A DNA stretch of 62,982 nt, filler included. It is 5 parts of 5 records of this genome, joined end to end, with 100 filler letters (N's around TTAATTAATTAA, not from the genome) between each part and the next. Parts side by side here need not be neighbours in the genome. Positions count along the whole stretch, not along the records: positions 15,514 to 27,451 come from SRR2962707_3162; 4 more parts are not named here. One strand, 5' to 3'. The notes under the pieces are model-generated. The model saw only the letters and a list, made by a program, of their open reading frames with translations, ran no database searches and was not told where the DNA came from. Position numbers and translations under genes: made by a program. Below, piece by piece: positions 15,414 through 27,393 of this stretch (within the stretch, counting starts at the first letter, position 1; every line of letters starts with the position of its first letter).

Positions 15414-15513
15414 NNNNNNNNNNNNNNNNNNNNNNNNNNNNNNNNNNNNNNNNNNNNTTAATTAATTAANNNNNNNNNNNNNNNNNNNNNNNNNNNNNNN
15501 NNNNNNNNNNNNN
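15414..15513. other. Artificial contig spacer
   Basis: 44 N + TTAATTAATTAA (stops in all six frames) + 44 N. Confidence 0.99.
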
Positions 15514-16011
15514 GCCGTAAAGAATCATGATGATGGACGGCGGCAGCAGGGCACCGACCGTCCCGGCGATGGAAACGGTGCTGGTCGCCAGCCCCGGATT
15601 GTACTTTTGGTCAATCATCTCCGGCACGGCAACGCGCCCCATGGCGGCGGAGCAGGCCACGGAGGAACCACACACCGCGGCGAAACCGGTGGTGCCGAAA
15701 ATCGAGGCCACCGCCAGCCCGCCCGGCACCGAGGATAACCAAAGGCGCGCAGCCCTGAACAATCCCTGAGTCAGTTGGGCATGGAAGCAAACGTAGCCAA
15801 GCAATAGAAACATCGGTACCGAACTGAGCACCCAGTTGGCGGAGAATTGGTAAGGGATGAGCCCCAACGATCCCCAGGCAATTCCCCAACCCATCAAATA
15901 CCACAGCCCGCCGAACGAGACTCCGATAAGCGCAATGCCCACCGGCATGCGCAAGGCAATCAGCGCAAACAGCACCACCAAACCACCGAGGCCGATCTGG
16001 ACTTCAGTCAT
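15514..16011 (-). CDS. dctM: TRAP transporter large permease DctM (3' truncated)
   Basis: PMFLL.G, PGGLAVA, FAAVCGSSVA, AGT.G.LLPPS..MILYG. Confidence 0.93.
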
Positions 16012-16583
16012 GCCGACTCTCCCGTGGCGCGAGTAGCATTCGGCCGCGGCACTTCACCAGTGCCCTGCTGTTGTCCGGACGAGACCAGCCCCGATTCGCC
16101 GCCCGTGAGATAGACAACGAACTTGTAGACCAGCATCAGAACCATAAGCCCCAGCCCAATGGGCAGCACAAAGTAGCCCGGCCAGATGATGATGGAGGTG
16201 CCGCCTTCCACCAGTGCGGCCCCCATCTCATAGCGGGTCACGGCTTCCAGCCAGGTTTTCACTGCCATGAAACCCAGGATGATCGCGGACAGCAGGATCA
16301 ACCAATGAGCCAGATGAAATTGGATCCGTTGTGGCAGACGTTCGGTAACCACCTCCACGCTGATGTGGGCGCCCAGCTTTTCCGCGTAAGCCAAAGGCAG
16401 AAAGGCGGCGATGATCATGTAGTAGTTGGACACGTAGGTGATGGTGCCGGGAATGGGTGTTGAAAACAGATAACGCAACAGCACGTCCAGGCTGATGTGG
16501 ATCATCATCAAGGCAATGGCGAGCCCGCCCACCAGCGTCGTCATATCCGTTACCCGGGAAAGGTAACGCCCCAACCGATACAT
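16008..16583 (-). CDS. dctQ: TRAP transporter small permease DctQ
   Basis: DVLLRY, GAHISVE, four TM segments; ATGA overlap with dctM. Confidence 0.9.
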   Translation of the reverse strand: MYRLGRYLSRVTDMTTLVGGLAIALMMIHISLDVLLRYLFSTPIPGTITYVSNYYMIIAAFLPLAYAEKLGAHISVEVVTERLPQRIQFHLAHWLILLSAIILGFMAVKTWLEAVTRYEMGAALVEGGTSIIIWPGYFVLPIGLGLMVLMLVYKFVVYLTGGESGLVSSGQQQGTGEVPRPNATRATGESA

Positions 16584-16632
16584 AGTTTTTCCTCGAGAAC
16601 CGGGAGTGCGAAGTGAAAATCGGCGATAACTT

Positions 16633-17043
16633 TTAATGGCCGGATTCGATGACCACGGTGGCATTGCCCACGGTGGTGGCTTCCCCACGCTGATTGGTGA
16701 TCCTGAGATCCAGGGTAACAGTGTCTCCATCAACGGCGGTCACTTCGCCCACGGTGCTCAGCACGTCACCTACATAGGCCGCACGACGATTGCTGTATCT
16801 GAATGCCGTCAGAGTCCCGTTTTCGCCCAACCATTCGTAGACCATCTGCGTCAACCAGTCACCTTGAAGTGGACCATCGATCAACAATTGCGGATGCCCT
16901 TCGGCTTCCTGGGTGTAGGGCAGATCATAGTGGATGCGGTGAGGATTCCAGATGGCGGCGTTGTACAAGAACAGCTGAACGGTATCCGCACGCCAGGTCC
17001 GCCCCGTAAGTTTCTCGCCGGCTTCAATACGTTTTGTCATCAT
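16633..17043 (-). CDS. MaoC-like hotdog-fold hydratase, catalytic half
   Basis: LFLYNAAIWNPHRIHYD...LLIDGPLQ, resembling the HTD2/itaconyl-CoA/mesaconyl-CoA hydratase motif. Confidence 0.8.
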   Translation of the reverse strand: MMTKRIEAGEKLTGRTWRADTVQLFLYNAAIWNPHRIHYDLPYTQEAEGHPQLLIDGPLQGDWLTQMVYEWLGENGTLTAFRYSNRRAAYVGDVLSTVGEVTAVDGDTVTLDLRITNQRGEATTVGNATVVIESGH

Positions 17044-17048
17044 CGCTG

Positions 17049-17504
17049 TTACCTCGCGATCCGGGTCAGACGTTCCGTGACCACTGGTTCGCCATCACGG
17101 GTTTCAAATCGGTTTTCGAATACCAGGAAAAGCAATGGCCCCTCGGCCCCGGTCTTCTCAAACACCTCGACGAATTTCTGCCGGCAAACCAGGGTATCCC
17201 CGGCGTAAATCTTGCGGTGGATCTGGTATTCACTACCGCCGGCCATGATGCGGTTGAGCGGCAATGGCGGCATCAGGCCGCTGTCCGGTTGGCGGCCGTC
17301 CGGCAGCAGGCGGTCCAGCGGTATCACCGGCATCATTGCCGCGAACAGGTAAAGCAACGGGGCCTCGTCACCATCGAGGTAACGTTCGATCCGCTGGCCG
17401 GTGGCCACGGCGTATTTCTTCAGGTCACCACGGGAGATTTCAAACTCAAAAGGCGGAAGCTCGGCACCGACATGGTTCTTGAGCTCCTCGGTAATCACAG
17501 TCAT
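17049..17504 (-). CDS. MaoC_dehydrat_N (FAS1-like) hotdog subunit
   Basis: EISRGDLKKYA.ATG, PPLPL.R.MAGG, EK.G..GPL.F. Confidence 0.8.
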   Translation of the reverse strand: MTVITEELKNHVGAELPPFEFEISRGDLKKYAVATGQRIERYLDGDEAPLLYLFAAMMPVIPLDRLLPDGRQPDSGLMPPLPLNRIMAGGSEYQIHRKIYAGDTLVCRQKFVEVFEKTGAEGPLLFLVFENRFETRDGEPVVTERLTRIAR

Positions 17505-17558
17505 GACGTACCCCGGTCAGGTTGGTGTAAACCGGGCGGCCAGGCCGCCCGCATCGGA

Positions 17559-18698
17559 TCAGAGGCCGTGCTTGGAGACGTCCACTTTGGAGAAGATCTC
17601 ATTCCAGTACAGGTCAACGAGCTGTTGCTCACTGTCCACGTCCTGGACCAGGCCGGCCCATTTCTCCAACAGTTCACGGAAATCCGCGATCATCTCCTGG
17701 CCTCGACTGACGTTGTACCGTTTTTGATAGTCCGTGGCGATGAAATCCATGTCCTTCTCGATAAAGGCGTTGGTTTTCGCCACCAGTTCCTGGTCGGCAT
17801 GATGAATCTTGACACCACGCTGCTCCGCTTCCGCCAGGATACGGTCTTCGTGCTGGTGGTAGATCCAGGGAATGCCGGCGGTGAACGCGCTGGCGGCACG
17901 CAGCATCAGCGTTCTCTGTTGCGGAGACAGCGACTTCCAGGTGTTGGCATTGATATTGGTACCCGCCACCGGCATGGGACCGCCCGGCACATCCATATTG
18001 ATGTCGGTCACCACATCCGCGAGCCCGAAATTGTGGATCTCCGGAGAAGCCAGAACGATGCAGCCCACGACACCCTGACTCAAGGCTTCGTACATTTCGT
18101 TGGCGGACATGGTCACCGGTGAGGCACCCACCGCCTCGGTCCAGCGGGACCAGTTGGCGGCACCGACCCTAAGACGCATGCCACTGAGATCCGCGGCAGT
18201 TTCCACTGGCCGGTTGCATACCAACCCATAGGAGGAACCACCGGTGCTGCCGGTATACACCTGATTTTGTTTGGCGAATTCCTGATTGCATTCCGGGCAG
18301 TGAAAGAACGTGAACTCGGAGAGTGCGCCCATGAAAACCATGCCTTCCTTGCCGCGCACCTTGTCACCCAGCAAGCTCAGCAACATCGATGATTCCACCG
18401 CCACATTGCTGTGCGGAAACTCGGCGGGGAAATAAGACGTCAGGACAAAACCGATATCCGCCATACCGTCCCGCAAACCGCCGGAGGTCTCCGCGAAATT
18501 CAGCAAGGACATGGGAAAGACCCGGACTTTCAAATCGCCATCGGACAGTTCACTGACGGATTCCGCATATTGTTTGGCCACATCCACGACGAAAGAACTG
18601 GGGGGATGGCCAATGGCATAACGCAACGTTCTCGCCTCGGCGGAGAGCACAGTCACCCCACTGAGTATGGCCAGAGCCATAATCATCAAGCGTTTCAT
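17559..18698 (-). CDS. dctP: TRAP substrate-binding protein DctP
   Basis: Signal peptide; G.ADIG, DLSGMRLR, EMYEALSQGVV. Confidence 0.88.
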   Translation of the reverse strand: MKRLMIMALAILSGVTVLSAEARTLRYAIGHPPSSFVVDVAKQYAESVSELSDGDLKVRVFPMSLLNFAETSGGLRDGMADIGFVLTSYFPAEFPHSNVAVESSMLLSLLGDKVRGKEGMVFMGALSEFTFFHCPECNQEFAKQNQVYTGSTGGSSYGLVCNRPVETAADLSGMRLRVGAANWSRWTEAVGASPVTMSANEMYEALSQGVVGCIVLASPEIHNFGLADVVTDINMDVPGGPMPVAGTNINANTWKSLSPQQRTLMLRAASAFTAGIPWIYHQHEDRILAEAEQRGVKIHHADQELVAKTNAFIEKDMDFIATDYQKRYNVSRGQEMIADFRELLEKWAGLVQDVDSEQQLVDLYWNEIFSKVDVSKHGL

Positions 18699-18740
18699 AG
18701 TGTGTTCACCTTTGTTATTTAATAGTTCATGGTAACGGTG

Positions 18741-19970
18741 TCAGATGACGCCGCTGTTTTTCAGGAACTCAAATTCTTCATCATCCTTGCCAAGCCATTC
18801 CCGATAAATCCGTTCGTTGTGTTCGCCCACTTCCGGAGCCGCCGCGTTCTTCTCGCGAGTGCCGCCGGAAAGCTTCACTGGATTACCGAACACTTGAAAA
18901 TCCACGCCCCGGTATTGCACCGGAATCACCATGTCGCGTAACCGTACATGAGGATCCGCCACCACTTCGTCGATGCTCTTGATGGGTGACAGCGGGAAGC
19001 GCGCACCGGTCATCTCTTCCAATTCCGCTTTGGTATGACGCCCGCACCACTGTTCCACCAGCGGTTTGACCCGGCGTTCATAAACTTCCGGATCAAAACG
19101 CCTGGCCATGGTGTTGATCTCAGGGTCATCGAGGAGGTGTTCATCACCGAAAACGATGCAGGCCTCACGCCAGAATTTGTCGGTATAGGCACCGAAGAAC
19201 ACGTAGCCGTCCTTGCAGGCGTAGCGGCCATAAGGTTTGACGAAAGGATGGCCGTTGCCTTCGGGAACCGTGACCTTGCCGGAGGCGGTGTAAGTCACCA
19301 ACGCGTTCTCGGTGAGCGAAATAATGGAGTCCTGTTGGGAAATATCCACGCATTGGCCTATGCCGGTTTGTTCCGCCTGGCGTAATGCCCCCAGGGTGCC
19401 AATGGCGCCGTACAGGGCCGCACTCAGATCGCCGAGCACGGTGCCCACCCGCATGGGTTCTTCCACCGTACCGTTCATGGACCACAGTCCGCCGGTGGCC
19501 TGGGCGCTGCTGTCGAACGCCGGCCGTGGCGAGTTTGGTCCGGTCTGTCCGAAGCCACTGATACAGGTGAGAATAATGGCGGGATTGGTCTCCGCCAGAA
19601 CGTCGTAGCCCAATCCCAGTTTATCCAGTGTGCCGGGACGGAAGTTCTCGATGACGATGTGGGCCCTGGCCACCATTTGCAGAAAGGTCTCACGGCCTTC
19701 CGCTTTCTTCAGATCCAGACTCACCGCCATTTTGTTTCGGTTGTACTGAGCGAAGAAACCGCTGATCGCCGCGCCATCCTGATCCATCAAAGGCGGGAAT
19801 TCCCTCGTCAGGTCCGGGTCCTGGGGGTGCTCGATCTTGATCACCGTCGCCCCCATGTCAGCCAGTAACATGGCGCAATAGGGACCGGCCACGACCCGGG
19901 TCAGATCGAGGATGACAATGCCCTTGAGCGGACCTTCTGATGCAACGGGAATATCGGTTTGATGGGTCAT
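18741..19970 (-). CDS. Family III CoA-transferase (CaiB/BaiF)
   Basis: LDLTRVVAGPY..MLLADMGA.VIKIE, NRNK, ENFRPG, GFGQTGP, catalytic D in AFD; GGAGG RBS. Confidence 0.95.
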   Translation of the reverse strand: MTHQTDIPVASEGPLKGIVILDLTRVVAGPYCAMLLADMGATVIKIEHPQDPDLTREFPPLMDQDGAAISGFFAQYNRNKMAVSLDLKKAEGRETFLQMVARAHIVIENFRPGTLDKLGLGYDVLAETNPAIILTCISGFGQTGPNSPRPAFDSSAQATGGLWSMNGTVEEPMRVGTVLGDLSAALYGAIGTLGALRQAEQTGIGQCVDISQQDSIISLTENALVTYTASGKVTVPEGNGHPFVKPYGRYACKDGYVFFGAYTDKFWREACIVFGDEHLLDDPEINTMARRFDPEVYERRVKPLVEQWCGRHTKAELEEMTGARFPLSPIKSIDEVVADPHVRLRDMVIPVQYRGVDFQVFGNPVKLSGGTREKNAAAPEVGEHNERIYREWLGKDDEEFEFLKNSGVI

Positions 19971-20056
19971 GGGACCTCCTCGTCTTGTTGTCATTCTGAT
20001 GCTCGCTGGTGGCGCCGCTCATCGGCGCCACCAGCGAGCTGATCATAGACGCTGCC

Positions 20057-21346
20057 TCACTCGCTTTGTCGCTTCTCTCTCAGCAAGGCTTCCGCGTGAT
20101 CGGCGCGCACATCCCGGGCGCTGACCATGCGCTCCACCACATAAGCAACCTCCTCGCCACGTGCGCCGGCCAACAGCGCTATATTGCGAGCGTGCAGGGC
20201 CATATGGCCGCGCTGAATGCCTTCCGTCGCCAGCGCGCGCAGCGCTCCCAGGTTCTGTGCCAGCCCCACCGCCACCGCCACTTCCGCCAACTCCTGGGCA
20301 CTGGATACGCCCAGAATCTTCAACGCCAGCCGTGCCAGCGGGTGCGTTTTGGTGGCGCCGCCCACCAACCCCACTGGCATTGGCATTTCAATGGTGCCCA
20401 CCAGGGCGCCCTCGCGGTCTTTTTCCCAGGTGGTGAGGGAGCCGTAATGGCCATCGCGGCAGGCATAGGCATGGGCGCCCGCTTCCACCGCGCGCCAGTC
20501 GTTACCGGTGGCGACGATCAAAGGGTCGATGCCATTCATGATGCCTTTGTTGTGGGTGGCCGCCCGGTACGGATCCACGGCGGCGAACGCGTAGGCATCG
20601 ATAATACGCTCGATTACGTCCTCACCTTTGTAGTCCGCGGTGTCCAGATGCTCCGGTGCAATGCGCACCTGGGCACGGGAGAGCCGCAGATCAGCGAGAT
20701 TGGAGAGAATCCGCAGCCGCACCGTGCCACCGGTGATCTCTTCCATCAGCGGCGCCACGGCCTCGGCCATGGTGTTCACGGTATTGGCCCCCATGGCGTC
20801 CCGCACATCGACCAACAGATGGGCCACCACCATCGGCCCGCGCGGACTGTCGGCGAAGGTATGGATGTCCAGATCACGGCAGCCGCCACCGAGCTGATTA
20901 AGGAGCTGATCCTTGCTGTTGGCCAGATCGAGGATGCGCTGCTTGTGACGCAGCAGGCTGAGACGGGCGTTGACCGGATCGGAAACACCGATGATCTGGA
21001 TCTGTGCGCGCATCAATGGGGTACTGGAGGATGTCAGAAAGCCGCCCGCCGGACGTGCCAGCTTTGCCATGAAGGACGCCGCCGCCACCACCGAGGGCTC
21101 TTCCACGGCCATGGGCACCAGCACCTCCTTGCCGTTAACGAGAAAGTTTCCGGCAATCGCCAAGGGCAGCTCGAACTTGGCGATGACGTTCTCAATCATG
21201 CCATCGGCGATTTCCAACGGCAGAGCTCCGACGTTGCGCAGCAGATCCAGCTCATCATCGGATAAGGCCAACTGGGATTGCAGATGATCCAATCGCTCGG
21301 CGGGGGAAAGATTACGAAAACCGGGAAGCAGGGAGCTGTAGCTCAC
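20057..21346 (-). CDS. mvaA: Class II (degradative, NAD-type) hydroxymethylglutaryl-CoA reductase
   Basis: [49 protein letters not shown]. Confidence 0.95.
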
Positions 21347-21436: not shown

Positions 21437-21459
21437 CTGTACCCATCAAAAAGGTACAG
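21437..21459. promoter_or_regulatory. Putative MocR/GntR operator
   Basis: CTGTACC-N9-GGTACAG inverted repeat between the divergent mvaA and regulator genes. Confidence 0.55.
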
Positions 21460-21509: not shown

Positions 21510-22901
21510 GTGGCCCTTCCCCTGCACCGCCAAACGCTGGCCCAGCGGGTCGCCGCCAGCATCGCCGAGCAGATCTCCGAGGGCGCGCTGCGCCAGGGCG
21601 ACAAGCTCCCCTCCCTGCGCGAGTACACTCGTCTGCATGGCCATTCCAAGAACACCGTGATCACCGCCTACGAGTACCTCGCCGCGGAAGGGCTTATCGA
21701 GGCCAGACATGGCAAGGGCTTTTTTGTCTGCGCGCCACCGGAGAACAGCGACGACACCGGCCCCGAACCACCGCCTTACGCACGCGCTCTGGACACCATC
21801 TGGATGATGCGTCAGCAGTTCGTGCGCGAGCCTGGACATTCCCATTTGGGCGAAGGGTTTCCGCCGGTGGAATGGCTGATGGATATGCGCCTGGACAAGT
21901 TCAGCCGCCAAGTGGTGCGCAGCGGCGTGGCCACACTGTTCCGTTACGGCGACCGACTGGGCAATATCAATTTGCGACAGCAACTGGTCAGAAAACTGGC
22001 CGGCTACGGCATCAGCACCACCATAGCGCAGATCGCCACGACCTTCGGCGCCAACCACGGCATGGACTTGGTGATCCGGCGGTTCGTCAAACCCGGAGAT
22101 GCGGTGCTGGTGGAAAGTCCGGGTTATTACCCGCTGTTCGGCAAGTTGCAGCTTCAGGGCGCGCGCATGCTGCCGGTTACCCGCCAGGTGGACGGGCCCG
22201 ACACCGAACAGCTGGCCCGGCTGCTGGCCAGAGAGAAGCCGCGCTTGTTCTTCATGCAGTCCGCCGGCCATAACCCCACCGGCACCGATCTTTCCACCGC
22301 CAAGGCGGAACGGATTCTGGCGCTGGCCAGACGCCATAATCTGATCGTGGTGGAAAACGATGCCATGGCGGATTTCAAACTCAGTTCCTGCACAAAACTG
22401 GCGGCCTTGGATCAACTCAAACGCACCCTTTATATCGGCAGCTTCTCCAAACCGGTTTCAGCGGCACTGCGGGTCGGTTTCATCGCCGGCGAGGAAGGGC
22501 TGATCAGTGAACTGGCGGACGTGAAAATGCTGTTGCACACCAGCGGTGCCGAGTATTCGGAGAGGCTGGTCAATATTATCTTGCGCGAAGGTCACTACCT
22601 GAGACATCTGGCGCGTCTGCAGAAGCGGCTCAGGGAAGCCACCGAACGGGGTCTGGCGGTGCTCGATGAGCTCGGCGCGGAAGTGTTTCACCGCCCGGAT
22701 CAGAGCCTCTATGTCTGGGCCCGCTTCCCCGGTATCGACGACGCCAATGAACTCACCCGGCACTGTCTGGACAAAGGGGTGATGCTGGCACCGGGCTCGA
22801 TCTTTTCCGTCGACAGAACAAAAATCGTGCCCTGGACCCGCCTCAACGTGGCTTACCTGGACGACCCGGCGTTCCGGGCCGCCCTGCTCGACGGCCTGTA
22901 G
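21510..22901 (+). CDS. MocR/GabR family regulator (GntR HTH plus PLP aminotransferase-like domain)
   Basis: KLPSLRE...SKNTV..AYE.L; ESPGY, HNPTG, GSFSK....ALRVG. Confidence 0.93.
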   Translation: MALPLHRQTLAQRVAASIAEQISEGALRQGDKLPSLREYTRLHGHSKNTVITAYEYLAAEGLIEARHGKGFFVCAPPENSDDTGPEPPPYARALDTIWMMRQQFVREPGHSHLGEGFPPVEWLMDMRLDKFSRQVVRSGVATLFRYGDRLGNINLRQQLVRKLAGYGISTTIAQIATTFGANHGMDLVIRRFVKPGDAVLVESPGYYPLFGKLQLQGARMLPVTRQVDGPDTEQLARLLAREKPRLFFMQSAGHNPTGTDLSTAKAERILALARRHNLIVVENDAMADFKLSSCTKLAALDQLKRTLYIGSFSKPVSAALRVGFIAGEEGLISELADVKMLLHTSGAEYSERLVNIILREGHYLRHLARLQKRLREATERGLAVLDELGAEVFHRPDQSLYVWARFPGIDDANELTRHCLDKGVMLAPGSIFSVDRTKIVPWTRLNVAYLDDPAFRAALLDGL

Positions 22902-22934: not shown

Positions 22935-23951
22935 TCAATCGAAGTTCTTCAGCACCACCGCCAGCACCGCGAAGGTATCCCCCATGGCAACTCTGGCGGG
23001 GTGGCGGCGGCCGATCAGAATACCGCTCACTGGCGCCCGGTATTCCACCGGCGCCGCACCGGTGCGCTCCATACCGTAGATTCTGGCGATCAGGTCACCG
23101 GCGCGGATTTCGTCTCCGAGGCCGACGCAAAACTCCAGCAATCCGGCGTGTTCGCTTTGCAGATAGTGGTCGTTATCGGGGATCTCCAGCATTCTGCTGG
23201 CGGATACCGGCGGATGCGGTTCTCCAGCCAGGACACCGGCGTAGCGAAGGACGTTCTCGACACCCCGCTCCGCCAGCGCCACACTCTCCGGCGTGGACGT
23301 GCCGCCACCGCGCAGTTCGGTGCTGATAAAGACCTTGCCCTGATTCTCGACCACGGTGTCGAACAGCGCCGCGCCCTCCAGTTCCGACATCAACAGCGTG
23401 TTGGGCGCGCCAAAGGCAAGAGCGCCTTCCAGACAACGGCGGGCCAGATCCTGGTCCGGCAACCGGTGGGTGGCGGCGAACGGCAGCAAATCCAGGGTGC
23501 GGCCGCCGGAATGAATATCCAGCACCACGTCGCTCAAAGGCACCAGATAACGGGTGAAGTAATCGGCGATACGCTCGGTCAGCGTGCCGCACGGGTCACC
23601 GGGGAAGGCGCGATTGAGATTGTCTTTATCGATGGGTGAGGTCCGGGTGCCATTCAGCGCCGCCGGATGGTTCATCATCGGCACGATGATGACACGACCG
23701 GCGATGTCCCTGGCTCGCAGCCGGTTGGCCAGTTTGATCAGGGCGGTGATCCCCTCGTATTCGTCGCCGTGATTACCTCCGGTGAGCAGCACCGTCGGCC
23801 CAGCGCCATTGCGCACCACGGCGATGGGGATCATCAGGTTGCCCCAGGCGGAGTCATCGTGGGAGTGCGGCAGCTTGAGAAATCCATGCTGCACACCATC
23901 TCGGTGGTAGTCCACGGTAGCGCTGATCGGGCTGTCTGGCAGATGCGACAT
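22935..23951 (-). CDS. doeB: N-alpha-acetyl-L-2,4-diaminobutyrate deacetylase (AstE/AspA family)
   Basis: SPISATVD..DGVQHGFLKLP.S.D.SAWG, GGNHGDEYEG, NLNRAFPG, DIHSGG, TELRGGG. Confidence 0.85.
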   Translation of the reverse strand: MSHLPDSPISATVDYHRDGVQHGFLKLPHSHDDSAWGNLMIPIAVVRNGAGPTVLLTGGNHGDEYEGITALIKLANRLRARDIAGRVIIVPMMNHPAALNGTRTSPIDKDNLNRAFPGDPCGTLTERIADYFTRYLVPLSDVVLDIHSGGRTLDLLPFAATHRLPDQDLARRCLEGALAFGAPNTLLMSELEGAALFDTVVENQGKVFISTELRGGGTSTPESVALAERGVENVLRYAGVLAGEPHPPVSASRMLEIPDNDHYLQSEHAGLLEFCVGLGDEIRAGDLIARIYGMERTGAAPVEYRAPVSGILIGRRHPARVAMGDTFAVLAVVLKNFD

Positions 23952-24004
23952 AGGTTCTCCTCGTCCCGGGCGCCCATGACGGGCCACCGGCTTTGCTCCT
24001 ATAA

Positions 24005-24718
<714 letters not shown>

Positions 24719-24768
24719 AATCCCCGCCCTTATGTCTGGTCGATTGAGACCAACCGGAGGAGAACACC

Positions 24769-25032
24769 GTGGCCCGTGTAACCGTAGAAGATTGCCTGGA
24801 AAAGCTGGACAACCGCTTTGAGCTGGTACTGGTATCCAGCCGGCGCGCCCGTCAGCTGCAGACCGGCGGCAAAGAGCCGCGGGTGGCCTGGGAGAACGAC
24901 AAGCCCACCGTGGTGGCCCTGCGCGAAATCGCCGATGGTCACGTGACCGGCGAAAGCCTGGATGCCGCCGCCCTGGAACACGACAGCGAGGTCGATGACC
25001 TGGCGCTGCTGACCCGTTCCTTCGGCGAATAA
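24769..25032 (+). CDS. rpoZ: RNA polymerase omega subunit
   Basis: [16 protein letters not shown]...RARQL...[11 protein letters not shown]. Confidence 0.98.
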
Positions 25033-25284
25033 CGCCGCTGCTCCGGCCGGGCACAGCCCCGGCCGCGCCTTTCTCTTTGCCCCCGGTCTTTGCCCGCTTT
25101 TTCATAGTCTCCGCCTATCAAGGCAAAAAGCTTTGCCTTTTCAATGACTCACGGCAATAACGTAGACAAATTGTCGCGGCAAACCTTAAGCTAGGACTGT
25201 ATACCGCATACCGCGATGATCAGCGCGGATGCATGACGCGTCCTTTGCATACATGGATCCGCCCTGGCGGCGTGATGAGAGCCC

Positions 25285-27393
25285 TTGTCCACCATCCATA
25301 ACCTGGAAAAACGTTTGCGCAGCTACCTGACGGACGAGCAGATCGCCCCGGTGGTGCGCGCCTACTATTTCGCCGAGACCGCCCACGAGGGCCAGTATCG
25401 ACGGACCGGGGACCCGTACATCACGCATCCGCTGGCGGTGGCCAACATTCTCACCGATATGCACATGGACCACGCCTCTCTGATGGCGGCCATGCTGCAC
25501 GATGTGATCGAGGATACCGGCGTCTCCAAGGAACAGCTGGCGACGGAATTCAGCGAGGAGGTGGCGGAACTGGTCGACGGCGTCTCGAAAATCGCCCAGA
25601 TCAAGTTCGAGTCCAAAGCGGAGCAGCAGGCGGAAAATCTGCGCAAGATGATCCTGGCGATGACGCGGGACATCCGCGTGATCCTGGTGAAACTCGCCGA
25701 CCGTCTGCACAACATGCGCACGCTGCATGTGATGAACCCCGACAAACGCCGCCGTATCGCCACCGAAACCCTGGAGATCTACGCGCCAATCGCCTTCCGC
25801 CTGGGCATGTACAACATGCGCGTGGAGTACGAGGACCTGGCCTTCCACGCCATCCATCCGATGCGGGCCCGGCTGATCGGTCAGGCGGTGCGCTCCGCCC
25901 GGGGCAACCGCAAGGAGATCCTCTCGTCGATCAAGACCAGCATCGAACACTGCCTGCAGCAGGAAGGCATCGAGGCCCGGGTGCTGGGGCGCGAGAAGCA
26001 CCTTTACAGCATCTACAACAAGATGAAGGAGCAGCACAAACCGTTCTCGGAAATCATGGACGTGTTTGGCTTCCGCATCATCGTCGACCGCGTGGACACC
26101 TGCTACCGGGTGCTCGGCGCGGTGCACAACTACTTCATTCCCATCCCGGGCCGGTTCAAGGACTACGTGGCCATTCCCAAGGCCAACGGCTACCAGTCCC
26201 TGCATACCACTCTGAAGGCCCACTCCGGGATTCCGCTGGAAATCCAGATCCGCACCGAGGAAATGGAAGCGATGGCCAACAACGGCATCGCCGCCCACTG
26301 GCTGTACAAGACCGAGGAGAAACCCGGCTCGCCGACCCACACCCGGGCGCAATCCTGGATGCAGCGGCTGCTGGAGATGCAGCAGAAAGCCGGCAACTCG
26401 ATGGAGTTCATCGAGAACGTCAAAGTGGACCTGTTCCCCGACGAAGCCTACGTATTCACGCCCAAAGGCGACATCAAGGAGCTCCCCGCCGGCGCCACTC
26501 CGGTGGACTTCGCCTACGCCGTGCACACCAAGGTGGGCAACCGTTGCGTGGCGGCCCGGGTGGACGGCAAGCTGGCGGCGCTGTCCACGCCGCTGGAGTC
26601 CGGGCAAACGGTGAAGATCATCACCGCCCCCAACGCCACCCCCAATCCGGCCTGGCTCAACTTCGTCGTCACCGGCAAGGCCCGCTCCAACATTCGCCAC
26701 TTCCTCAAGCAGCAGCGGCGGGAAGACGCCCGGGAACTGGGACAACGCCTGTTGGACAAGGCCCTGGCGGGCTATGAGAGCAGCCTTGAGCATCTGCCGG
26801 AAACGGTGATCCGCGCCGAGTTGAACAGCAACGATCAGCACAGCCTGGACGAGCTGCTGGAAGACATCGGCATGGGCAACCGGCTGGCGCCGCTGGTGGC
26901 CCGCAAGATGATGGGCAACCACGGTGAGGCCCGGCAGGAAGAGGACGACCGGCGGCCGCTGGCGATTCGTGGCAGCGAAGGCCTGATGGTGACCTACGCC
27001 AAGTGCTGCTACCCGCTGCCCGGTGATACCATCCTCGGGCATCTCAGTGCCGGACGGGGCATCGTGGTGCATCGCGATACCTGCAAGAATCTGCTGGCGG
27101 AGATGCGCAACGCGCCGGAAAAATGCATCGCTCTGAGCTGGGAGCGGGAGGCGGAGCAGGAATTCACCGCTGGCCTGCGCATTGAACTGGTCAACAAGCG
27201 CGGCGTCCTCGCCACCCTGGCCAACAGCGTCACCGAGCAGGGCTCCAACATCGATACCATCGACATGTCCGACAAGGACCCCACGCTATCCCTTCTCAAT
27301 GTCACTCTCACGGTGAAGGACCGCATCCACCTGGCGCGCATTATTAAACGCCTGCGTGTGCTGGATAACATCGTTCGCATTCACCGTCTGTAA
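25285..27393 (+). CDS. spoT: Bifunctional (p)ppGpp synthetase/hydrolase SpoT
   Basis: HEGQYR.TGDPY..HP, LHDVIED, KDY...PK.NGYQSLHT, TGS and ACT domains; gmk-rpoZ-spoT order. Confidence 0.97.
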   Translation: MSTIHNLEKRLRSYLTDEQIAPVVRAYYFAETAHEGQYRRTGDPYITHPLAVANILTDMHMDHASLMAAMLHDVIEDTGVSKEQLATEFSEEVAELVDGVSKIAQIKFESKAEQQAENLRKMILAMTRDIRVILVKLADRLHNMRTLHVMNPDKRRRIATETLEIYAPIAFRLGMYNMRVEYEDLAFHAIHPMRARLIGQAVRSARGNRKEILSSIKTSIEHCLQQEGIEARVLGREKHLYSIYNKMKEQHKPFSEIMDVFGFRIIVDRVDTCYRVLGAVHNYFIPIPGRFKDYVAIPKANGYQSLHTTLKAHSGIPLEIQIRTEEMEAMANNGIAAHWLYKTEEKPGSPTHTRAQSWMQRLLEMQQKAGNSMEFIENVKVDLFPDEAYVFTPKGDIKELPAGATPVDFAYAVHTKVGNRCVAARVDGKLAALSTPLESGQTVKIITAPNATPNPAWLNFVVTGKARSNIRHFLKQQRREDARELGQRLLDKALAGYESSLEHLPETVIRAELNSNDQHSLDELLEDIGMGNRLAPLVARKMMGNHGEARQEEDDRRPLAIRGSEGLMVTYAKCCYPLPGDTILGHLSAGRGIVVHRDTCKNLLAEMRNAPEKCIALSWEREAEQEFTAGLRIELVNKRGVLATLANSVTEQGSNIDTIDMSDKDPTLSLLNVTLTVKDRIHLARIIKRLRVLDNIVRIHRL

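Follow-up and report, generated by a model that had tools for sequence, protein, structure and literature searches.

In the stretch of DNA analysed here (the window; 62,982 nucleotides, consisting of five contigs with N spacers between them), the contig at 15514-27451, which comes from a marine hydrocarbon (oil)-degrading bacterium, carries a seven-gene operon on the minus strand and a divergent gene for a MocR-type regulator. The first gene of the operon, mvaA, encodes a reductase of HMG-CoA, the CoA ester of 3-hydroxy-3-methylglutarate (the free acid, abbreviated HMG). It is followed by genes for a CoA-transferase, an enoyl-CoA hydratase split over two genes and an importer of the tripartite ATP-independent periplasmic (TRAP) type. 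Comparison with related loci shows that an activating enzyme and a hydratase, of either of two folds, are repeatedly coupled to mvaA. The reading favoured here, though tentatively, is that the operon is a derivative of the mvaAB type to which a second entry route (transferase and hydratase, leading to HMG-CoA) and a dedicated TRAP importer have been added.

An mvaA operon with a CoA-transferase and a split hydratase

Seven co-directional genes, from mvaA to dctM, had been proposed in a first-pass annotation of this DNA, and all of them were confirmed on the minus strand. They are transcribed in the order mvaA, CoA-transferase, dctP, hydratase N half, hydratase C half, dctQ and dctM, with intergenic gaps of 62, 42, 54, 5, 49 and -4 nt, respectively:

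20057-21346, minus strand: mvaA, NAD-type class II HMG-CoA reductase (PF00368, 378 bits; TIGR00532, 428 bits)
18741-19994, minus strand: family III (CaiB/BaiF) CoA-transferase (PF02515, 383 bits)
17559-18698, minus strand: dctP, TRAP solute-binding protein (PF03480, 93 bits)
17049-17504, minus strand: split hydratase, N half, with the C half 5 nt downstream (PF13452, 70 bits)
16633-17043, minus strand: C half of the split MaoC/hot-dog enoyl-CoA hydratase (match to 8khg/8huc; NPHRIHYD motif)
16008-16583, minus strand: dctQ, TRAP small permease, with a 4-nt overlap with dctM (PF04290, 73 bits)
15514-16011, minus strand: dctM, TRAP large permease, partial (PF06808, profile positions 1-156 of 413)

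MvaA scores 428.4 bits against TIGR00532, "HMG-CoA reductase, degradative" (cut-off 259.95), and the enzyme of Pseudomonas mevalonii (1qax) matches it with 729 bits, without gaps over residues 1-426. As this alignment is gapless, the P. mevalonii numbering can be transferred to MvaA. Glu83, Lys267, Asp283 and His381, to which we assign catalytic roles on the assumption that numbering and function follow the P. mevalonii enzyme, are all present, and the KDQLL motif lies at 145-149, in agreement with the first-pass annotation. Asp146, which we take to be the determinant of NAD use, is also kept, as are Ser85, Arg261 and Asn271, presumably ligand contacts in the P. mevalonii enzyme. By these features MvaA qualifies as a canonical HMG-CoA reductase of the NAD-dependent class II type, predicted to work in the mevalonate-oxidising, CoA-acylating direction.

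The probable start of the transferase, judged from the sequence, is the second ATG, at 19970, after GAGGAGG. The protein falls below the cut-off of the mesaconate CoA-transferase model (296 bits) and of the glutarate model (250 bits, cut-off 750); it reaches 143 bits against the CaiB model and 61 bits against the mesaconyl-CoA isomerase model. Among solved structures it matches succinate--hydroxymethylglutarate CoA-transferase (9br6) with 190 bits over nearly its full length. The closest models and solved relatives are enzymes of C2-C6 dicarboxylates.

The N half of the hydratase aligns to residues 19-138 of itaconyl-CoA hydratase, and the C half to residues 168-212 (45 residues) of the fused itaconyl-CoA hydratase 8khg. 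This enzyme is the best solved relative of each half, in line with the itaconate-type set named in the first-pass annotation, and the only one at E<0.001 for either, at weak scores of 26 and 42 bits. Its product, citramalyl-CoA, is the C5 homologue of HMG-CoA. No family in the searched Pfam copy covers the C half; its homologues carry PF27832, and 1633 of half length were found, many with this domain. Since two separate open reading frames (ORFs) recur in all relatives and half-length homologues are this numerous, the split is real and does not result from a frameshift.

The TRAP proteins P, Q and M are all encoded together, in an unusual order with the hydratase genes between P and Q. The solved relatives of DctP are all too distant (at most 70 bits) to give a hint of its ligand. 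As noted in the first-pass annotation, the contig ends inside dctM, so that only the first 166 codons are present and the gene is cut by the spacer at 15414-15513. The contig junctions consist of 44 N, TTAATTAATTAA and 44 N (the linker lies at 15458-15469 and recurs at the other three junctions) and have stop codons in all frames. These linkers are artificial, and genes must therefore not be read across the junctions.

Contigs from RNA libraries cover the operon in four of four libraries from two studies, and one contig bridges 15782-20583. Such contigs carry no transcript ends, levels or strand, and DNA carry-over is possible; they are a weak hint of transcription. Depth differences between the operon and the DoeB/gmk side, being per-contig values, were left out of account.

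Conservation, control and surroundings of the operon

The full operon was recovered by an MvaA scan of reference genomes in Alloalcanivorax balearicus MACL04 (locus L007), which at 98% identity has the same seven genes in the same order; together with the synteny of sister loci, it shows the genes to be co-conserved. Gene calling in these loci was based on codon-position GC, replacing greedy longest-ORF calls that gave antisense artefacts in GC-rich loci. L005 (Pseudomonas nabeulensis), L099 and L100 (Pseudomonas) and L106 (metagenome) have a MocR gene divergent from mvaA, which is followed by lyase, transferase, hydratase N half, hydratase C half, tctB-like, tctA and oprD genes. L104 and L105 (metagenome, approximately 80% MvaA identity) have the same divergent arrangement, with the order mvaA, lyase, transferase, dctP, hydratase N half, hydratase C half, dctQ and dctM. 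The position of dctP between transferase and hydratase genes is shared by L007 and L102-L105.

In all 12 assessable loci, close relatives of the transferase or hydratase adjoin mvaA. These loci occupy at least four places in an MvaA tree (quick maximum likelihood, 46 sequences) and show five different gene orders. A search seeded with the C half yielded at least three of 301 Pseudomonas genomes and 80 metagenome loci. Ten loci, L005 and L007 among them, reach at least 60% identity; mvaA and the transferase are present in nine, and the remaining one (L107) starts within the transferase gene. The 60% boundary was set post hoc, and the N half splits the same groups (at least 60% versus at most 58%). 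In the remaining 74 metagenome loci (49-59% identity) no mvaA was seen, many of them being too short to judge. Split hydratase pairs are common in these marine and soil contigs (L108-L181), where in several cases the gene before them encodes a distantly related family III CoA-transferase (24-33% identity); hot-dog hydratases made from two genes thus form a broader family that has not been studied.

The transferase matches 238 records of a plasmid collection. Three exceed 50% identity, all with mvaA within 10 kb: Brucella intermedia, Rhizobium sp. CC-CFT758 (with the transferase in two pieces) and Rhodococcus pseudokoreensis. The hydratase has no close relative in this collection (38% identity at best). 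Orthologous transferases with 52-58% identity occur in Brucella intermedia, Rhizobium, Rhodococcus, Xanthobacter and Peristeroidobacter, the loci of Xanthobacter tagetidis and Peristeroidobacter soli having been found through MvaA. In these five lineages the place of the MaoC pair is taken by a hydratase of the crotonase family, likewise next to mvaA; they fall in three separate places of the MvaA tree. Because a crotonase replaces the MaoC pair, it is the hydration step on the transferase product that is conserved. A lyase is present in nine of the 14 loci that combine an activating enzyme, a hydratase and mvaA. The pairing of the reductase with an itaconate-type transferase/hydratase set, pointed out in the first-pass annotation, is a co-conserved and apparently undescribed addition to a mevalonate-type reductase operon. 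Random samples, in which four candidates were scored per genome so that the counts (and the three of 301 Pseudomonas above) are lower bounds, added no orthologues. Among 400 genomes of the class, the C half was found once, in the genome on which the sample was centred, and the same genome alone gave a transferase match (E <= 1e-110) in both of two samples at class level, each of about 400 genomes.

Three arrangements deserve separate mention. On the R. pseudokoreensis plasmid (L182, 4716-10991), genes for caprolactamase-like HyuA and HyuB are co-directional with transferase and crotonase genes, and this group faces an mvaA-lyase pair across a GAF-domain regulator; the HyuAB genes suggest a lactam or related ring-opening step that feeds the module. 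Secondly, the actinobacterium Gordonia sp. (L006) has an MvaA (78% identity) and a MocR (66%) of the gammaproteobacterial clade, followed by TctB/TctA-like transporter genes and with no transferase or hydratase, probably as a result of horizontal transfer across phyla. Thirdly, in Variovorax (L008 and L009, 5797-8473) an acyl-CoA synthetase gene and a PRK08259 crotonase gene converge on the MocR gene beside mvaA. This set may be a third variant of activation plus hydratase, or may be unrelated.

No HMG-CoA lyase was detected by tblastn anywhere in the window, as already reported for the operon, and the suggestion that one might follow past the contig end does not hold. In L007, dctM is complete (435 aa, L007:15366-16673) and is the last gene of the operon, as it is in L102 and L103; no lyase follows, but unrelated genes, namely an HTH-IrrE/DUF4411 pair and yicC. 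Neither is the locus a known mvaAB-type operon with its lyase just beyond the gap. In the sister operons the lyase genes sit between mvaA and the transferase gene (L005, L099, L100, L104, L105 and L106; six of the nine gamma-type loci whose DNA reaches mvaA). The sister lyases score 410-435 bits against NF004283 (cut-off 246). The window, L007, L102 and L103 form the lineage without an operon lyase. In the MvaA tree, window and lyase-bearing loci are one clade with 100% SH-like approximate likelihood ratio support, and the window lineage is nested inside it. Because of this nesting, a loss of mvaB in the window lineage is parsimonious, and the operon is most simply read as an mvaAB-type derivative minus mvaB, rather than as a lyase-free design.

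For the window lineage, a lyase outside the operon is known through A. balearicus as a proxy. On the contig that carries the operon there, about 80 kb from it, is a single isolated gene of the lyase family (311 bits, cut-off 246). It stands (L101, G001:C56:7471-12402) near genes for a lipase-like hydrolase and an OsmC-like protein and two tandem orphan dctP genes, whose products are 46-49% identical to the operon DctP and which have no dctQ or dctM beside them. Membership of a liu cluster was considered for this lyase and rejected, and no palindrome like the MocR box was found near it.

Four further features adjoin the operon genes:

20001-20039, no strand: 17-bp inverted repeat or RNA hairpin in the mvaA-transferase spacer
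21437-21459, no strand: palindrome CTGTACC-N9-GGTACAG in the MocR-mvaA spacer, candidate MocR operator
21510-22901, plus strand: MocR-type regulator, divergent from mvaA (PF00392 and PF00155)
22935-24041, minus strand: DoeB-type N-acyl-amino-acid deacylase of the AstE/AspA family (TIGR02994, 453.5 bits)

The hairpin, a perfect inverted repeat, lies where sister operons have their lyase gene. Its RNA fold has -48 kcal/mol (z = -7.1), and it is confined to the window lineage (window, L007, L102 and L103), with no U tract after it. At the 3′ end of mvaA (20075), L007 and the contigs of four RNA-library runs have 30 extra bases. These are an in-frame TTGAGAGA-type repeat expansion, by which the C-terminal tail of MvaA becomes 10 residues longer. 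An origin as a remnant left by the lyase gene was considered and rejected, as the difference is in-frame repeat variation.

The regulator has a GntR helix-turn-helix (PF00392) at residues 10-73 and a fold-type I aminotransferase-like domain (PF00155) at 142-453, and it stays below the cut-off for all named subtypes (PdxR, EhuR, GabR and MocR). Of the 27 loci with at least 61% MvaA identity, 23 have a homologue of it next to mvaA. The palindrome shared by the MocR-mvaA spacers, CTGTACC-N9-12-GGTACAG, has one match in the window, where 0.00 are expected, and may be the operator of the MocR protein. With somewhat looser matching it occurs in 18 of 183 loci (L005, L007, L010-L015, L017, L021, L025, L099, L100 and L102-L106), each time 55-190 nt upstream of mvaA. 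These loci span Gamma-, Beta- and Alphaproteobacteria, and a direct ACTGT often precedes the palindrome. As it is also present in loci of Burkholderiales and Alphaproteobacteria that have no transferase, regulator and operator belong to mvaA itself. A second exact match exists in A. balearicus (G001:C23:76481-76504).

On its deacylase side the locus continues with gmk and spoT, and on the far side in L007 with yicC, which makes the operon an island inserted between housekeeping genes. At the island edge, directly after dctM, the HTH-IrrE (M78 peptidase) and DUF4411 genes occupy L007:17664-19303. Minus-strand ORFs at 24263-25105 and 25186-27072 were discarded as antisense artefacts of gmk and spoT. 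The deacylase, which is part of the same island, exceeds the cut-off of the DoeB model for N-acetyl-diaminobutyrate deacetylase (402.7), and its counterpart is the only DoeB-type gene above cut-off in the A. balearicus genome, where no DoeA reaches the cut-off (best 28 bits versus 613). A deacylase homologue adjoins the operon in L007, L102-L105 and L107, in two different arrangements, and a functional link of this enzyme to the operon is possible.

Possible routes into HMG-CoA

According to the favoured, tentative reading, the TRAP system would import C6 branched carboxylates, which would be degraded in two branches. In the first, MvaA would convert (R)-mevalonate, CoA and 2 NAD+ to (S)-HMG-CoA. 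In the second, the transferase would activate an unsaturated 3-methyl-2-enoic C6 acid with succinyl-CoA or another acyl-CoA as donor; 3-methylglutaconate would be the most economical candidate, and HMG could be activated directly. The two hydratase halves, as a heterodimeric double hot-dog enzyme, would then turn 3-methylglutaconyl-CoA into HMG-CoA. The HMG-CoA from both branches would be cleaved to acetoacetate and acetyl-CoA by a lyase encoded outside the operon, and MocR would control the operon through the palindrome at 21437-21459. This narrows the branched C5/C6 (di)acid of the first-pass annotation, since a C6 acid (mevalonate, HMG or 3-methylglutaconate) would be the most economical class. 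What is shown is the reductase, the structure of the operon and its kinship with mvaAB operons; substrate and enzyme activities are inferred.

The dicarboxylate-type relatives of the transferase, which include the human enzyme named for HMG, and the resemblance of the hydratase halves to itaconyl-CoA hydratase suggest this second branch. Transferase, hydratase and lyase would form the C6 counterpart of the itaconate route, whose transferase-hydratase-lyase module is present in annotated plasmids and has been described in print (PMC12290011).

Several observations weigh against such a funnel. Its main weakness is that a 3-methylglutaconate branch needs the lyase and not MvaA, yet its genes are always beside mvaA (12 of 12): among the assessable loci, no close relative of transferase or hydratase stands with a lyase alone, and on the Rhodococcus plasmid the lyase gene shares its direction with mvaA, whereas the transferase-hydratase pair does not. 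EchA19 and DpgD are the best-scoring models for the crotonases that stand in for the MaoC pair in other clusters, and no methylglutaconyl-CoA hydratase model is among their top families, although the library may hold none. Moreover, the nearest hydratase relatives outside mvaA loci (L111, 57-58% identity) accompany acyl-CoA ligases, an acyl-CoA dehydrogenase, a thiolase-like protein and a short-chain dehydrogenase/reductase. Given this beta-oxidation-like context, the split family is not restricted to dicarboxylyl-CoAs. Lastly, there is no explanation for a regulator of the pyridoxal-phosphate (PLP) type in a pathway without nitrogen.

A close rival, possible if somewhat unlikely, is a linear route that precedes MvaA and would account for the first of these points. 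Here, transferase and hydratase would turn anhydromevalonate (5-hydroxy-3-methylpent-2-enoate) into mevalonate by CoA recycling: mevalonyl-CoA gives its CoA to anhydromevalonate, the hydratase makes mevalonyl-CoA again, and the freed mevalonate proceeds through MvaA to the lyase. All four enzymes would act on one substrate, possibly originating from the anhydromevalonyl side chains of fungal hydroxamate siderophores; this would explain why mvaA is beside transferase or hydratase in all 12 loci and why the lyase is dispensable in the locus. CaiB and CaiD of carnitine metabolism perform the same kind of CoA-recycling hydration. Likewise, a P. aeruginosa transferase with an Ich-type hydratase turns itaconate into free citramalate (PMC12290011), and fungal SidI and SidH interconvert mevalonyl-CoA and anhydromevalonyl-CoA (PMC3709128). 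SidH matches the crotonase of the Brucella cluster with 120 bits, not significantly different from the 110 bits of the 3-hydroxybutyryl-CoA hydratases 5jbw/5jbx. Hydrolase and importer genes beside the module are a loose fit: an M20D amidohydrolase and peptide-type ATP-binding cassette genes beside the module in Brucella intermedia, esterase-domain proteins in Peristeroidobacter, the caprolactamase-like HyuAB in Rhodococcus and the DoeB-type deacylase in the window. The aminotransferase-like domain of the MocR protein would fit as well; the protein contains an SFSK stretch, which we take to be the PLP-lysine motif, and MocR-type regulators usually sense amines.

Against this linear route stand the nearest characterised relatives of the transferase, which use dicarboxylates rather than hydroxy-monocarboxylates (CaiB model 143 bits, mesaconate model 296), and the need for a priming acyl-CoA donor. 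A source of anhydromevalonate is not evident for a marine hydrocarbon degrader, and bacterial catabolism of this compound was not found in the literature among the matches listed. The acyl-CoA ligase and other-family crotonase of Variovorax, if linked to mvaA, would fit one-way activation better.

A more specific and rather doubtful form of this idea is that transferase and hydratase make up a CoA-recycling anhydromevalonate hydratase system that feeds MvaA. Hydrolase, transferase, hydratase, reductase and lyase together would then be a bacterial pathway that consumes the anhydromevalonyl (perhaps methylglutaconyl) groups of fungal siderophores or similar N-acyl conjugates, while MocR would sense the amino part. 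If true, this would be the first physiological context for the "orphan" NAD-dependent HMG-CoA reductases of bacteria without a mevalonate pathway.

Two other explanations have very little to recommend them. The enzymes could correct isomers, either by moving CoA between the arms of prochiral HMG or by epimerising (R)-HMG-CoA via 3-methylglutaconyl-CoA, so that both mevalonate enantiomers or unselectively activated HMG could be used. In MaoC-type and crotonase-type enzymes the addition of water has opposite stereochemistry, which would suit such a scheme, but two hydratases of opposite specificity would be needed and each cluster has only one type. (S)-Mevalonate is not known as a natural product, and nothing was found to speak for the handling of both enantiomers that the first-pass annotation had envisaged. 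Family III transferases can shift CoA within one dicarboxylate (PMC9813914), but the score of the window transferase against the mesaconyl-CoA isomerase model is too low to point that way. Equally improbable is a neighbourhood without functional link, in which the assembly of the island would have brought transferase, hydratase and TRAP genes next to mvaA while they act on some unrelated acid (itaconate or mesaconate, for instance). The locus is indeed an island between gmk and yicC, and the interleaving of TRAP and enzyme genes shows that rearrangement has taken place. However, the gaps between genes (5-62 nt) hold no terminator-like site except weak consensus matches, the association recurs with TctA and OprD in Pseudomonas and with another hydratase family in Alphaproteobacteria and Rhodococcus, and no citramalyl-CoA-type lyase is among the operon genes. 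Least credible of all is a new reductase substrate, raised in the first-pass annotation, by which MvaA would form a non-HMG acyl-CoA for hydratase and transferase to process: an operon without lyase would fit, but a changed substrate is unlikely because of the gapless match to the enzyme of mevalonate-grown P. mevalonii and the unchanged Ser85, Arg261 and Asn271, and in its closest relatives by tree the gene that follows encodes an HMG-CoA lyase.

The NAD-dependent class II reductases of P. mevalonii, Burkholderia cenocepacia, Delftia and Ruegeria pomeroyi are well studied as enzymes. The available parts of PMC12292504 and PMC13370337 contain no statement on the physiological role of Proteobacterial members. 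New here is the place of the reductase in a conserved regulon, together with a MocR protein, a palindromic candidate operator and carboxylate importers. Several unrelated lineages also couple it to an enzyme that activates acids and to a hydratase whose fold is interchangeable. From this coupling, its natural substrate would be something other than mevalonate itself. In the literature, supplements aside, neither a description of the gene set or its regulator was found, nor bacterial catabolism of anhydromevalonate or 3-methylglutaconate by such genes. The enzymes could also be put to use for interconverting mevalonate, anhydromevalonate, 3-methylglutaconate and HMG, since bio-based monomers have these compounds as precursors.

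Comparison with known systems

Among the closest known systems is mvaAB of P. mevalonii. Its reductase is closely homologous to the MvaA of the window and shares the catalytic and NAD-determinant residues, and in the sister operons mvaB directly follows mvaA. The window operon differs in that mvaB is absent and the transferase gene follows mvaA after 62 nt, and in its additional CoA-transferase, split hydratase, TRAP importer and divergent MocR gene. In P. mevalonii the regulator is MvaT.

The itaconate cluster Ict-Ich-Ccl of P. aeruginosa (PA0882, PA0878 and PA0883) likewise combines a family III transferase with a MaoC-type hydratase, which forms a 3-hydroxy-3-methyl dicarboxylyl-CoA that is then split by a C-C lyase; Ich is the best solved relative of the window halves. 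A TRAP importer is also known for itaconate (PMC12599236). In contrast to this cluster, the hydratase of the window is split and only weakly similar to Ich (26 and 42 bits), a reductase is always attached, and the lyase of the sister operons is of the HMGL type, with no CitE/HpcH citramalyl-CoA lyase among the operon genes.

Human SUGCT, whose name states an activity on HMG, belongs to the same family as the window transferase (190 bits) but is distant, and the NCBIfam succinate-glutarate model gives 250 bits versus a cut-off of 750. In CaiB/CaiD and in SidI/SidH, an activating enzyme and a hydratase interconvert a free 2-enoic and a 3-hydroxy acid via their CoA esters. CaiB is more distant from the window transferase (143 bits), SidI is a ligase, and SidH is a biosynthetic crotonase, unlike the hot-dog hydratase of the window; SidH does act on mevalonyl-CoA itself (PMC3709128). 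LiuC (3-methylglutaconyl-CoA hydratase) and LiuE (HMG-CoA lyase) catalyse the same two steps as proposed in the favoured reading. LiuC is a crotonase, whereas the window enzyme is a split MaoC protein, and no carboxylase or isovaleryl-CoA dehydrogenase genes are adjacent. From ectoine catabolism (DoeA-DoeB), a DoeB-type deacylase is present, while DoeA is not above cut-off in A. balearicus. Altogether, the locus resembles an mvaAB operon fused to an itaconate-type module and is a full member of neither system, since it lacks both the adjacent mvaB and a CitE-type lyase and its similarity to Ich is weak.

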